Shown here: one piece after another, positions 37,636 through 42,241 of the stretch
Layout: every line of letters begins with the position of its first letter
Numbering within the stretch: position 1 is the first letter of the stretch
Virus record (IMG/VR): IMGVR_UViG_3300005337_000001
Coordinates: 131,581 to 195,580 of that record
DNA from: a virus
Length of the DNA stretch: 64,000 nucleotides
Strand: one strand, 5' to 3'
The notes under the pieces: model-generated
Databases searched by the model: none
Seen by the model: the letters and a program-made list of their open reading frames with translations, nothing else
What the model was told of the DNA's origin: nothing
Program-made: the position numbers and the translations under genes

Positions 37636-37883
37636 AAGACACCAGGTACAGGTGGGTCCAAGACTCGCCGCGCCGGTACTCAGCAAGGATTGGTCCGCTT
37701 AGTATCGGCATCGTACGCATCGCGATGGGTCCACTGAACGGGCTGTGGCGTATCGAACATATCTTCGGGGATCAAGTAGTAGGTCCGAAGGACGGCACGG
37801 TGCTGCAGGTGGCCATGCTTAGTGCCGAAGACGTGGCGATGAACCTGCTCATCAAAACCTTCACCTTCATGGCGCGTCGATGA
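37632..37883 (+). CDS. hypothetical protein
   Basis: ATGA-coupled at both ends. Confidence 0.6.
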   Translation: MKDTRYRWVQDSPRRYSARIGPLSIGIVRIAMGPLNGLWRIEHIFGDQVVGPKDGTVLQVAMLSAEDVAMNLLIKTFTFMARR

Positions 37884-38227
37884 CCTACGGCGGGCGGCGA
37901 CCTTCGGCCAAGGCAATCAGGCGTAGATCGCGGAGACAAGAGCAAGAGCTGGCAGAAGGGACAGGAGCTAGGGTCCAAAAGGGCTCCGGCTCCATCCCTC
38001 ACCTGAAGGGCGACGTGCACTTCAAAGGCAAGTTCAGAGCCGAGTGCAAACAGACCCGACAGAAGAGCTTCTCAGTGACGCGCGCCATCCTGGACAAGAT
38101 TCGCAGCGAATGTTCATTCGATGAAGTCCCCGTGCTCGACGTCGAGTTCCTGAACCCTGTCGGTCGCACCGAAGAACGCTTCATCGTCATCCCCTACAAC
38201 GTGTGGCTCGAGCTACAGAAAGACTAA
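37880..38227 (+). CDS. Hjc-like PD-(D/E)xK nuclease / Holliday junction resolvase
   Basis: QEQELA..GSG..KGDV..AECKQT. Confidence 0.7.
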   Translation: MTYGGRRPSAKAIRRRSRRQEQELAEGTGARVQKGSGSIPHLKGDVHFKGKFRAECKQTRQKSFSVTRAILDKIRSECSFDEVPVLDVEFLNPVGRTEERFIVIPYNVWLELQKD

Positions 38228-39144: not shown

Positions 39145-39782
39145 ACGAACCCCATGGAGGACTTAGGCTTCAAGGCCCCGTCGCCGGTGTCGGAGAGACG
39201 GAAGCAGAAGACATTCACCGCGAATGGTCGCTGTACCCCGCGGTGCAGGAATACCTGACGACACACCTGGCGTTGGCGATGCCGAAGGAGCCTGAGTTCG
39301 CATGCCCTCCTCTTCGAGTGGAAGACCTGACGACAAACGACAACAAGGTGTACACCGAGACGTACGCCCAGCGGGTCGCATGGTTCGGCTTCTATTCAGA
39401 GCGCAAGGCAGAACACGATGCCATCGTGCTCGAGGTCGAAGCGGAGATGAGCGTGATCGAGACACGCATCCGCAACCACATGCGCAGGAACAGCAAGAAG
39501 CTGACAGCCTCCGGTGACTCGAAGGCCCCGCCAGCGCAGGCCATGGAAGACGCGATCAACAGCGACACCCGCTACCTCGAGCTCAAGCAGAAGGTGGTCT
39601 TCCACAAGCAAATCCTGAAGCGCGTCAACGCCAGAGTGGAGACCTTGGACCGCGAGATTCGCCTGACGTCGCGCCAGGTAGAGATTCGCAGGCAGGAGTT
39701 CGACAACGCCGGCCGTGGCAGCGGCAGCGTGCGACAGCCAGGCCCTGGTATGAGACCGCCGGGGAGCTACGGCCGCGGATGA
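39141..39782 (+). CDS. UvsY-like coiled-coil recombination mediator
   Basis: AINSDTRYLEL..VETLDREIRLTSRQVEIR pattern; context. Confidence 0.5.
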   Translation: MNEPHGGLRLQGPVAGVGETEAEDIHREWSLYPAVQEYLTTHLALAMPKEPEFACPPLRVEDLTTNDNKVYTETYAQRVAWFGFYSERKAEHDAIVLEVEAEMSVIETRIRNHMRRNSKKLTASGDSKAPPAQAMEDAINSDTRYLELKQKVVFHKQILKRVNARVETLDREIRLTSRQVEIRRQEFDNAGRGSGSVRQPGPGMRPPGSYGRG

Positions 39783-40255
39783 TTCACCTCCAGTTCCCTT
39801 GGCTACCGCCGTCGATCAACAACCTGTACCACGACCAAGCGGTGCACGTTGGCGGCAAGGGCAGGTTCAAGAAGATCATCATCAAGCGCGTGCTTACTGA
39901 CGAGGGCAAGCTCTTCAAGAAGGAAACGCTCTCGTACTTAGTGAAGGGCTACCAGCCACAGCTCCGCTTCTTCAAGAAGAATGTGCCCTACCTCTTCTAC
40001 TACCGCTTCATCACGCCAGACCTATTCAACAAGACCTGGCCAAAAGAGGCAGAGAGCAGGTACAAGAGGTTTGACGCAAGCAACTTGGTCAAGGTACTGG
40101 AAGATGTCGTAGTCGAAGCGTGCGGTGTCGACGACTCGAACTACCTGACCGTAGTGAGCGAGAAGCGAAAGGGGACGAGCGAAGAGACGCACATCTGGGT
40201 CTGGAATCTTGAAGAGGAGGGATGTCCCTTCCATGCAGCAGCACTCTCCATTTGA
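39779..40255 (+). CDS. rusA: RusA-family Holliday junction resolvase
   Basis: PWLPPSINNLY, DASNLVKVLEDVV..GVDDS. Confidence 0.85.
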   Translation: MIHLQFPWLPPSINNLYHDQAVHVGGKGRFKKIIIKRVLTDEGKLFKKETLSYLVKGYQPQLRFFKKNVPYLFYYRFITPDLFNKTWPKEAESRYKRFDASNLVKVLEDVVVEACGVDDSNYLTVVSEKRKGTSEETHIWVWNLEEEGCPFHAAALSI

Positions 40256-40622
40256 GGCATACAACCACACGGAACTCTACCAATCGTGCATCAGCGCGAA
40301 CATCATGGTGCGCCCTAACGAGGCGCGGGAAGAGATGATCGCGTACCTCGAAGGGCTCAAGGAGCCACCACCGCTCGCCGAGGCCGACCAGGTGTTCAAC
40401 AGCTGGCGGAACGGCTTCATCAACTTCTTCAACGAGTACTGGCGCAAGCTGGAGACCCAGCTCGTCTGCCCCGCTCGAATGATGAAGCACCCAACGCACC
40501 CCAACCCAAAACCCTGCTTTGGATGTCTTGACGCCCAAGTCGTCCACTGCCTAGTAAGTAATCCCGAGAACGCTTCATTGATCGAAGCACATCGGCTAGT
40601 GAGGAGACCGCGAACCAAATGA
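40233..40622 (+). CDS. HeH-like N-terminus + Cys/His cluster protein
   Basis: FEAYNHTELYQSC..REEMIAYL; CPA..CFGC..HC. Confidence 0.6.
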   Translation: MQQHSPFEAYNHTELYQSCISANIMVRPNEAREEMIAYLEGLKEPPPLAEADQVFNSWRNGFINFFNEYWRKLETQLVCPARMMKHPTHPNPKPCFGCLDAQVVHCLVSNPENASLIEAHRLVRRPRTK

Positions 40623-41278
40623 CCACCACTCAAATTTCCGTAGCAACCGCTCCCCGTGACATCGCCGGCCTGAAGAACCTCGGCCGGTTCAACATGCGCA
40701 TCCTGGCTCAAGAGCTGGGTGCCTTCGAACAGGAGGAGACCAAGACTGCTTTCATGCAGCAGTCGACCGACGAGCAGGTTGCCTTCGTGCACAAGCTGCT
40801 GCTCGAGAAGGACGGCGGCGGCAAAGCCAGTAAGGGAGCTGGTGGTGCTTCGCCACGGCAGCCGTCGACGAAGGGCGCCGCCAAAGGCGGTGGCGTAGTC
40901 GGCAAACCCGCCGGCGAGGCCGCGAAAGGTACGGGAGGCGGTGGTACCGCAACGGCTGGTCCTGCCGTCGGCGCCGGCGCGGAGAAGTTGCTCGCGGCCA
41001 TCGGCGAGCTGAACGAGAAGATCGACGGGTTCAACGAGACCCTAGGCAATCTGCAGACCGCAGTCGAGCAGCTGCAGGGCATCAGCGCTGGCACGAACCG
41101 TTTCGTTGCGCTGGCGATTGGCCTCTCTGGCAAGCTCGCCGAGCAGGTGATGGGCGCGTCGCTGGCCCAGATCATCGACGTCGTACTCGAAGACATGCCG
41201 GCAGTAGAGGAAGCCATGAAACGGATGGCGCCGGCAGCCGAAGAGGACGAGGAGCCAGAAGCGGGAAACGAAGAGTAG
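40619..41278 (+). CDS. HeH (Rho-N-like) + Gly/Lys linker + coiled-coil protein, short form
   Basis: LKNLGRFNMRILAQELG; acidic C-terminus; 219 aa. Confidence 0.75.
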   Translation: MTTTQISVATAPRDIAGLKNLGRFNMRILAQELGAFEQEETKTAFMQQSTDEQVAFVHKLLLEKDGGGKASKGAGGASPRQPSTKGAAKGGGVVGKPAGEAAKGTGGGGTATAGPAVGAGAEKLLAAIGELNEKIDGFNETLGNLQTAVEQLQGISAGTNRFVALAIGLSGKLAEQVMGASLAQIIDVVLEDMPAVEEAMKRMAPAAEEDEEPEAGNEE

Positions 41279-41313
41279 TAGCCGTCAAGACGTGGCCAGG
41301 CTGCAGACGGCTA
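41249..41313 (+). other. candidate programmed -1 ribosomal frameshift cassette
   Basis: GAGGAG 41249-54; in-frame G_GGA_AAC 41263-69; stem TAGCCGTC/GACGGCTA 41279-86/41306-13. Confidence 0.7.
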
Positions 41314-41469
41314 GCGGCGCACGATGTCGTTGAAGTGAACGCCGGGTATCTCAGTTCCCTGCGTTACCACGACCTCCGCGTCCTGGCCGTCAGCCTGGGC
41401 GTCCTAGTACAGGACGATCCAAGCGTCGACGTGCTACGCCAACGAATTCGTCAGTGTCGCCTTGTGTGA
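41263..41469 (+). CDS. -1-frame extension encoding a HeH-like domain
   Basis: Open frame with no ATG; YLSSLRYHDLRVLAVSLGV..SVDVLRQRI. Confidence 0.6.
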   Translation, partial: GKRRVVAVKTWPGCRRLAAHDVVEVNAGYLSSLRYHDLRVLAVSLGVLVQDDPSVDVLRQRIRQCRLV

Positions 41470-41517
41470 AGGGCGGCACTGTTCGATGGGGCGTGCTCAC
41501 TGTGCAGAAAGGTTACG

Positions 41518-41718
41518 ATGGGCGCGTCATGTAACGGGGAAGTGCGGCAGGACGGACATCAGTGGTTCTGCCTCGATTGCGGTCATGTGAGCTCTTCCTG
41601 GAGCACACAGCACAAGCCACTGCAGTCCAGACGGGCGCTCTTCCTCACAAGTCTGCTGGAGCTACTGCGCGAAGCCGAAGCAGAGGAAAACGTGGGAGCT
41701 GCGCAAGCAGCGACATGA
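41518..41718 (+). CDS. small Zn-ribbon protein
   Basis: SCNG..WFCLDCG. Confidence 0.55.
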   Translation: MGASCNGEVRQDGHQWFCLDCGHVSSSWSTQHKPLQSRRALFLTSLLELLREAEAEENVGAAQAAT

Positions 41719-41731
41719 CCACGGAGGGATC

Positions 41732-41760
41732 AGCGCCGTGCCAAACGACGCTTTTTCCTT
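41732..41760 (+). terminator. probable terminator between convergent blocks
   Basis: AGCGCCGT/ACGACGCT stem (one mismatch) followed by a T-run. Confidence 0.5.
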
Positions 41761-41764
41761 AGCC

Positions 41765-42241
41765 CTACTTCGCCTTTGCAGCCACCACAGTGACGGCCAC
41801 AGTGGTCAAGACGCCGACGGCGAACCAGAGCCCTGGCTCCTTGAAGAACGACGGGTTCCTGAGATTCTCCTCGGCCTCAAGCCGAGCCTTGTCGGCAGCT
41901 AGAAGGCGGTCTCGCAGGTCCTTCTCGCTCTTGGTGTTGCGCTCCTGCTCAATGACTCGGTACGAGTCTTCATGCGCCACCAAGACCTTGCAGCTGTCCT
42001 GCGCCGCCTTCAAGTCCGTGCCGTAGCGAAGCTCGTATTGCTTCAGCCACATAGCCCAGCGCAGGGACGTGTTCTCGTCGAAGAGCTGCCCGTCATACGG
42101 GGCAGGATAGCCCTTCTTCACCGCCGTGATGTTGTCGTCACCAGCTGGCAGGGTGACGAGGTGGGGAGACGGCAGCGGCTCTTCCGCCAGGGCCAGCGCG
42201 GGTATGAGAAACGCAGCAACGGAGGCTCGGTACTTCATCAC
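41765..42241 (-). CDS. signal-peptide + coiled-coil + C-terminal TM protein, spanin-like
   Basis: N-terminal hydrophobic leader; C-terminal GLWFAVGVLTTVAVTVVAAK; lysis cluster context. Confidence 0.5.
   Translation of the reverse strand: MMKYRASVAAFLIPALALAEEPLPSPHLVTLPAGDDNITAVKKGYPAPYDGQLFDENTSLRWAMWLKQYELRYGTDLKAAQDSCKVLVAHEDSYRVIEQERNTKSEKDLRDRLLAADKARLEAEENLRNPSFFKEPGLWFAVGVLTTVAVTVVAAKAK

Follow-up and report, generated by a model that had tools for sequence, protein, structure and literature searches.

We examined the final 64 kb of a complete virus record, IMGVR_UViG_3300005337_000001 (record positions 131,581 to 195,580; these 64,000 nucleotides are referred to here as the window), which belongs to a genome of 195,580 bp with direct terminal repeats. 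Our subject is a plus-strand gene for a 219-residue protein in which a candidate -1 ribosomal frameshift site stands two codons before the stop, and which is followed in the -1 frame by an open extension of 66 codons. The elements of this locus, in window coordinates, are the following.

40619-41278, plus strand: the 0-frame gene, 219 amino acids; a predicted N-terminal HeH (helix-extended loop-helix)-like domain is followed by a disordered linker of Gly, Ala and Lys, a helix with heptad repeats, two short helices and, last, an acidic tail.
40655-40819, plus strand: domain of three helices at the N-terminus (about residues 13-67), with a predicted HeH/Rho_N-like fold.
41249-41254, plus strand: Shine-Dalgarno (SD)-like GAGGAG, 8 nucleotides upstream of the heptamer and 9 nucleotides before the P-site GGA; a possible stimulator, not an established one.
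41263-41269, plus strand: slippery heptamer G_GGA_AAC, the candidate shift site, in which GGA and AAC are 0-frame codons; two codons before a tandem TAG.
41269-41469, plus strand: the -1 frame extension, 66 codons plus TGA (41467-41469).
41279-41313, plus strand: a perfect 8-bp stem with arms TAGCCGTC (41279-41286) and GACGGCTA (41306-41313), starting 9 nucleotides after the heptamer.
41293-41304, plus strand: W-P-G-C motif, residues 9-12 of the extension; its third codon positions vary among relatives.
41335-41466, plus strand: predicted HeH/SAP-like core of the extension, residues 23-66, consisting of a helix, a 10-residue extended loop and a helix.

The 3' end of the 0-frame open reading frame (ORF) reads GCG GGA AAC GAA GAG TAG TAG, with the in-frame heptamer placed just as the original prediction, made from the letters of the window, had described it. 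The GAGGAG element and the downstream stem which that prediction reported are also present in the window, and the -1 frame is open for 66 codons without an ATG, as it had claimed, the only GTG codons being at positions 22, 54 and 65. The sizes proposed for the two isoforms, 219 and 283 residues, agree with the position of the site (217 + 66 = 283).

Taken as a pattern in one genome, this arrangement is not beyond chance. In a survey of the 590 ORFs of at least 100 amino acids in the 195,580-bp genome, seven had an in-frame X_XXY_YYZ heptamer 0-3 codons before the stop, and three of those seven were followed by a -1 extension of at least 60 codons. These 3/590 ORFs, together with an estimated probability of about 0.1 that a 66-codon frame stays open at 60% G+C, leave room for an extension with no function: the open frame might exist by chance in a genome of 60% G+C, be a remnant in decay, or result from an indel in the assembly. 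What a single genome does not settle is decided by conservation across 19 loci, which is beyond chance: the arrangement recurs in 19 independently assembled loci, and this argues against that explanation.

A second ORF of this genome, outside the window (G000:C1:96312-98362, minus strand), also has G_GGA_AAT in frame near its end, a single codon ahead of the stop, and 140 codons of the -1 frame are then open. Its stop is overlapped by an ATG in a different frame (ATGGCTAG), so the open frame there may simply be the next gene.

The 19 related loci were found through contigs encoding homologues and by scans of metagenome and viral collections. The IMG/VR scan was productive only with an alignment as the query and gave no match with a single protein, and the INPHARED phage collection, queried with this region as DNA and as protein, also gave no match. 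A broad alignment of the extension proved to have diverged too far to be of use in scanning for loci. The DNA polymerase of this genome is less than 30% identical to any entry of the phage collection, and the clade is therefore poorly sampled; the related loci themselves sit on contigs of 186-203 kb.

Identity of the main protein among the 19 loci falls to about 23%. Nonetheless, 18 of the 19 have G_GGA_AAC or G_GGA_AAA in 0-frame phase with 0-3 codons between it and the stop, and the remaining locus has A_GGA_AAA. The family alignment has only four invariant columns, among them the glycine of this GGA codon, and five out of five further distant homologues end in G-K-x(0-2). GGA is the rarest glycine codon of this phage (6.6% of 1099), while AAA makes up 14% of its lysine codons; the constraint therefore acts on nucleotides rather than on amino acids, as a slippery site needs. 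The sequence flanking the heptamer is free to vary, the tail being acidic in most loci and non-acidic in four (L011, L028, L030 and L031), and 3-nucleotide indels between the heptamer and the stop preserve both frames. Homologues range from 210 to 310 amino acids, 23 of them having 210-230, and all end at the heptamer. The conservation of heptamer and -1 frame in relatives, which the original prediction had offered as a check on itself, is thus found family-wide.

Several lines of evidence indicate that the -1 frame is a coding sequence. In every complete locus the extension comprises 62-68 codons, with a W-P-x-C motif at extension codons 5-9 followed by a conserved core, and the differences within TWPGCRR among the window and loci L001-L003 are synonymous (ACG/ACC, CCA/CCT, GGC/GGT, TGC/TGT, AGA/CGA and CGG/CGA/CGT). 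Mean column identity is 71% in the extension as against 63% in the main protein. We also computed the ratio of nonsynonymous to synonymous differences per site (pN/pS) by a pooled Nei-Gojobori procedure in which the same bases were read in all three frames. This ratio was 0.37 overall for the -1 frame versus 0.92 and 1.81 for the other two; divided at the GTG of the window, it was 0.43 before and 0.34 after in the -1 frame, with values of 0.89-2.07 in the other two frames. Both the better conservation of the extension relative to the main protein and its low pN/pS speak against an extension with no function, and we give that explanation hardly any chance of being right. In one locus, L004, a -1-frame stop abuts the heptamer on its upstream side and the 0-frame stop follows two codons later, and these stops on both sides therefore confine the frame change to 13 nucleotides that contain the heptamer. 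Sequence comparison thus shows that the heptamer is conserved in phase and that the -1 frame is coding.

Stop-codon reassignment was also considered and was rejected: the 0-frame stops of the relatives are TAG, TAA or TGA, and the 0 frame beyond the stop bears no signature of coding (pN/pS 0.92).

A coding -1 frame might instead belong to a separate small gene, in which a WPGC/HeH protein of 44-66 residues would be made from its own start (GTG at 41335 or a non-canonical codon) or by termination and reinitiation after the TAG, the heptamer being incidental. Gene callers do give stand-alone ORFs of 45-80 amino acids at this position, and in four distant loci a GTG or ATG follows the heptamer by 1-8 codons: in L029 and L030 this is a GTG that shares bases with the preceding stop (GTGA), an ATG directly precedes the WPGC motif in L028, and a GTG does so in L011. 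Other observations count against a separate gene. The GTG of the window has no preceding SD sequence and is replaced by ATT, GTA, GTC or ATC in 5 of 13 relatives, with conservation continuing upstream of its position; L010, L016 and L023 have no ATG, GTG or TTG until codons 33-38, inside the domain; and in 15 of the 19 loci no start codon precedes the WPxC motif, so that both the motif and the purifying selection lie upstream of any start. Separate initiation also leaves the invariance of the rare GGA codon and the phase of the heptamer unexplained. As a conserved mechanism, initiation at the GTG near 41333, which the original prediction had named among the findings that would refute it, is ruled out by the non-start codons in 5 of 13 relatives and the conserved upstream sequence, and we regard a separate small gene as improbable. 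In L011, L028, L029 and L030, where the heptamer is still in phase, separate initiation may coexist with the frameshift.

Equally, the two frames have not been found joined. No in-frame fused form occurs among the homologues, and none was recovered by a word-indexed search of longer proteins, which is weak evidence; an exhaustive HMMER profile search with the extension against 1.84 billion cluster representatives returned only ORF calls of 45-80 amino acids and no fusion. The two-frame arrangement is therefore maintained rather than resolved.

The same fusion protein could in principle arise by another form of recoding, either transcriptional slippage at GGGAAA or a slip in the P site only, with the A site empty and AAA read as lysine. 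No conserved stimulatory RNA structure was found, which suits this explanation, and the heptamer also permits a single-tRNA slip (GGA to GGG); the sequence data do not distinguish between the routes. Set against this, the strict X_XXY_YYZ phase in 18 of the 19 loci is a requirement of tandem slippage that slippage of the transcript would not need, and G3A3 is shorter than the homopolymer runs on which transcriptional slippage depends. We consider recoding by these other routes quite improbable.

A programmed -1 frameshift at G_GGA_AAC, yielding products of 219 and 283 amino acids, is on this comparative evidence highly likely. According to this model, some of the ribosomes translating the 219-residue gene would change frame at the heptamer, with only two codons left to the stop: tRNA-Gly in the P site would re-pair from GGA to GGG and tRNA-Asn in the A site from AAC to AAA, both slipping back by one base, after which the -1 frame would be translated for 66 more codons. 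The short product would end in ...EPEAGNEE, while in the 283-residue product the terminal EE would be replaced by a linker with the conserved WPGC motif and a second HeH/SAP-like domain. The tandem slip predicts the junction tryptic peptide MAPAAEEDEEPEAGNR, and a P-site-only slip predicts ...EAGK. Common to both products would be the HeH-like domain at the N-terminus, the basic and disordered linker, the helix with heptad repeats and the acidic tract. The idea that the frameshift exchanges an acidic tail for a new domain consequently has to be corrected: the acidic tract is encoded before the shift site, so that both isoforms contain it, and only the last two residues (EE) are replaced.

We then consider what might stimulate such a shift. 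GAGG, AGGA or GGAG occurs 6-13 nucleotides upstream of the heptamer in 15 of the 19 loci, the non-acidic L031 included, and an SD-like element with this spacing is absent from L011, L022, L028 and L030; the motif is, however, inherent in the Glu (GAG/GAA) codons of the acidic tails. Downstream, the hairpin region of the window was no better than shuffled sequence (z 0.15 and z -0.40), Rfam holds no family for this RNA, and no conserved stem-loop was found 5-9 nucleotides after the site, where a stimulatory stem-loop or pseudoknot would be looked for (pseudoknots were not searched). A downstream stimulatory structure is not obligatory in phage G/GT-type sites, and the 8-bp stem of the window is probably not a required stimulator. 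The original prediction had assigned the site to the SD, slippery site and stem architecture of dnaX and IS911; because the stem is not conserved and the SD-like GAGGAG is confounded with Glu codons, that architecture is not demonstrated here. In this the site bears a closer resemblance to the G/GT class, which is poor in stimulators. The shift may be helped by the 0-frame stop close by and by the GAGG that often stands upstream.

Certain observations weigh against a programmed frameshift. The case for it is wholly comparative, and the start codons shortly after the heptamer in L011, L028, L029 and L030, described above, could allow separate initiation as well in those loci. RNAalifold applied to the relatives gave no consensus structure downstream of the heptamer, only four weak pairs, and folds of the 60 downstream nucleotides were no better than shuffles (mean z -0.2 over 14 loci). 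Finally, AAC in the A site is less shift-prone than AAG in E. coli (PMC5009743), and the efficiency of the shift may therefore be low, to the extent that E. coli data, which may not be those of the host, apply.

Structure predictions give an indication of what the extension would add. In the AlphaFold2 model of the 219-residue form, the N-terminal domain consists of three helices over residues 15-65 and is confident, with a predicted local distance difference test score (pLDDT) of 85-89; it is followed by a disordered Gly/Ala/Lys linker (residues 67-116), a 60-residue helix, two short helices and a disordered acidic tail. Along residues 128-152 of the long helix, hydrophobic side chains (I, L, I, F, L, L, V, L) are cleanly spaced in a 3-4 pattern, from which this heptad-repeat helix is predicted to be a coiled coil. 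It would lie between the two HeH-like domains and correspond to the shared coiled coil that had been proposed for the two isoforms. In the model of the extension, helices at residues 33-42 and 53-65 are separated by a 10-residue loop.

Searches with these models point to the same group of folds for both ends of the long product. For the N-terminal domain, the best match in a VIA search with the full model, most of whose list consisted of non-specific coiled-coil rows, was the Rho N-terminal domain (1a62_A, residues 1-48; Z 6.1, root-mean-square deviation (rmsd) 1.7 over 48), and comparison with ESM Atlas structures gave Rho_N clusters with template modelling (TM) scores of 0.59-0.64. The extension, in a VIA search independent of Foldseek, again matched the Rho N-terminal domain best (1a62_A; Z 5.3, rmsd 1.6 over 44), followed by SAP and LEM domains (MKL1, Hcc-1, emerin, Ku70, SLX4, FAN1 and PIAS1), and rows named HeH/LEM and Rho_N recur in BFVD with weak E-values. 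Foldseek searches of the PDB gave no match at E <=0.001 for either the 219-residue or the extension model. The two domains resemble one another weakly by hhalign (25 columns, E 1.3e-3, probability 18%).

Against the HeH assignment stand the moderate confidence of the models (mean pLDDT 65 for the 219-residue form and 71 for the extension), Z-scores that are low, for small helical domains, and sequence searches of both parts against Pfam (E up to 1), PHROGs and the PDB, which returned only noise. Like HeH, SAP, LEM and Rho_N domains, the modules here are predicted to consist of a helix, an extended loop and a helix in about 35-45 residues; unlike them, they have no sequence match to Pfam models, and the extension bears a conserved WPxC leader and a conserved C-terminal Cys. 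To our knowledge, neither this leader nor the C-terminal Cys occurs in those families. Two HeH-like modules are thus a reasonable prediction at the level of fold, not of family membership. The second HeH domain of the original prediction holds to this extent, in that both domains are predicted to be HeH/SAP-like with 1a62_A as the best match.

The N-terminal module (GRFNLR.LA..LG...E.K..FM) is also present in these phage genomes (L017-L020) in another small gene, unrelated to the first, an example being a 103-residue ORF at 1887-2198 of L018. In the genome studied here it has a weak match (E 1.7e-5) within a 591-residue frame outside the window (G000:C1:27133-27207, minus strand).

The probable frameshift gene lies near the end of a plus-strand block that converges on a minus-strand block. 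In order, this block encodes a SNF2/ResIII helicase, a UDG-like protein, a DnaB-like helicase, a DnaG-like primase, a family A polymerase, a UvsX-like recombinase, a Holliday junction resolvase, a Cas4-like exonuclease, an unknown gene, a RusA-like gene, another unknown gene, the frameshift gene and a small Cys-rich ORF. The end of the order, RusA-like gene, one or two small ORFs and frameshift gene, is kept in 12 of 12 relatives with enough upstream sequence, the most distant included. With UvsX-like, resolvase, Cas4-like exonuclease and RusA-like genes as its neighbours, the frameshift gene is outside the tail region, as the original prediction had held, and it does not occupy the place of a tail assembly chaperone gene, just upstream of the tape measure among tail genes.

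Its start ATG overlaps the TGA of the upstream ORF (129-137 amino acids) as ATGA at 40619-40622, and overlaps of this type are also present in the gene calls of relatives (2115-2504 / 2501-...), which suggests translational coupling within an operon. Further upstream, two different genes of Holliday-junction-resolvase type lie on the plus strand inside 2.5 kb, at 37880-38227 and 39779-40255, flanking the Cas4-like exonuclease; the matches are to phrog_2002 (E 7e-27) and RusA-like (E 1.5e-4). Downstream, 49 nucleotides past the extension, a conserved Cys-rich ORF of 66 amino acids (41518-41718, plus strand) with a C-x(14)-C-x2-C pattern is preceded by GAAAGG. It is also present in L001-L003, being annotated as a gene in L001, and is the true last gene of the plus-strand block; it has no PHROG match. 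The gap after the 0-frame gene had been described as otherwise empty, and this ORF shows that it is not. No sigma-70 promoter or terminator pattern was detected in 40400-42000, and no tRNA genes in the window.

How does this locus compare with known frameshifts? Shifting at G_GGA_AAC has been documented for g-t of HCTV-1 (PMC5009743), and for the tail chaperone of Burkholderia phage KL1 a GGGAAAC shift has been predicted (PMC3483164). As in lambda gpG/gpGT (G_GGA_AAG) and other tail chaperone shifts, the long form here would have an extra C-terminal domain, and, as in those cases, the arrangement is deeply conserved despite low protein similarity and would need no strong RNA stimulator (PMC5009743, PMC3483164). 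Unlike G/GT, the gene is not beside a tape measure or tail gene but closes a recombination/replication block, its protein has no similarity to the chaperones, and the added domain is predicted to be HeH-like. In T3/T7 gene 10A/10B, Lactobacillus phage A2, Listeria phages and cases involving Ig-like domains, a shift near the stop similarly gives some molecules an extra C-terminal module (PMC5009743). Those cases involve capsid or tail proteins and Ig-like or other surface modules, whereas here the context is non-structural and the module, on the fold prediction, of a nucleic-acid-binding type.

With E. coli dnaX (tau/gamma) and IS911/IS3 the locus shares a setting in DNA metabolism, a -1 shift for which an X_XXY_YYZ heptamer is the site and, for dnaX and IS911, an SD-like motif upstream (GAGGAG, 8 nucleotides before the heptamer in the window). 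It differs from dnaX in that the dnaX shift truncates the protein, while the shift here would extend it, and from both dnaX and IS911 in that these depend on a downstream stem-loop or pseudoknot, of which no conserved example was found here, and in its A-site codon, which is AAC or AAA, not AAG.

Annotated phage frameshifts are mostly in tail chaperone genes, with others in capsid, cro, lysin and polymerase genes (PMC5009743; PMC10885494), and our literature search found no paper describing the present one. Addition of a C-terminal domain by frameshifting is already known (G/GT, 10A/10B, Ig-like); in the present case the gene context is unusual and the phage clade uncharacterised. Gene callers consistently miss the shift, calling nothing or a truncated ORF of 45-80 amino acids, and the finding corrects the annotation of the whole family. 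The family also offers a clean natural test of shifting at G_GGA_AAC and G_GGA_AAA in bacteria without an obvious RNA stimulator.

As to function, which draws no support from any annotated homologue, we propose a protein that would bind DNA, oligomerise through its helix and act in the phage recombination/replication block, a proposal whose chances we judge to be roughly even. How often the ribosome shifts would then fix the proportion of molecules carrying one DNA-binding module to those carrying two, and we give about even chances to the bridging function that the original prediction had put forward. The finding points to a protein whose function, if the fold predictions are right, probably depends on the ratio of two isoforms differing by one DNA-binding-type module. 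More tentatively, and with the chances rather against it, an ancient family-wide -1 frameshift may set the one-HeH/two-HeH stoichiometry of a coiled-coil protein that organises or bridges DNA in recombination-dependent replication, in an undescribed clade of phages of ~190-200 kb. If this is true, these phages would possess a recoding-controlled DNA-metabolism factor that works without a conserved RNA stimulator, and the WPxC leader together with the C-terminal Cys would make up another functional site, such as one for metal binding or redox chemistry.

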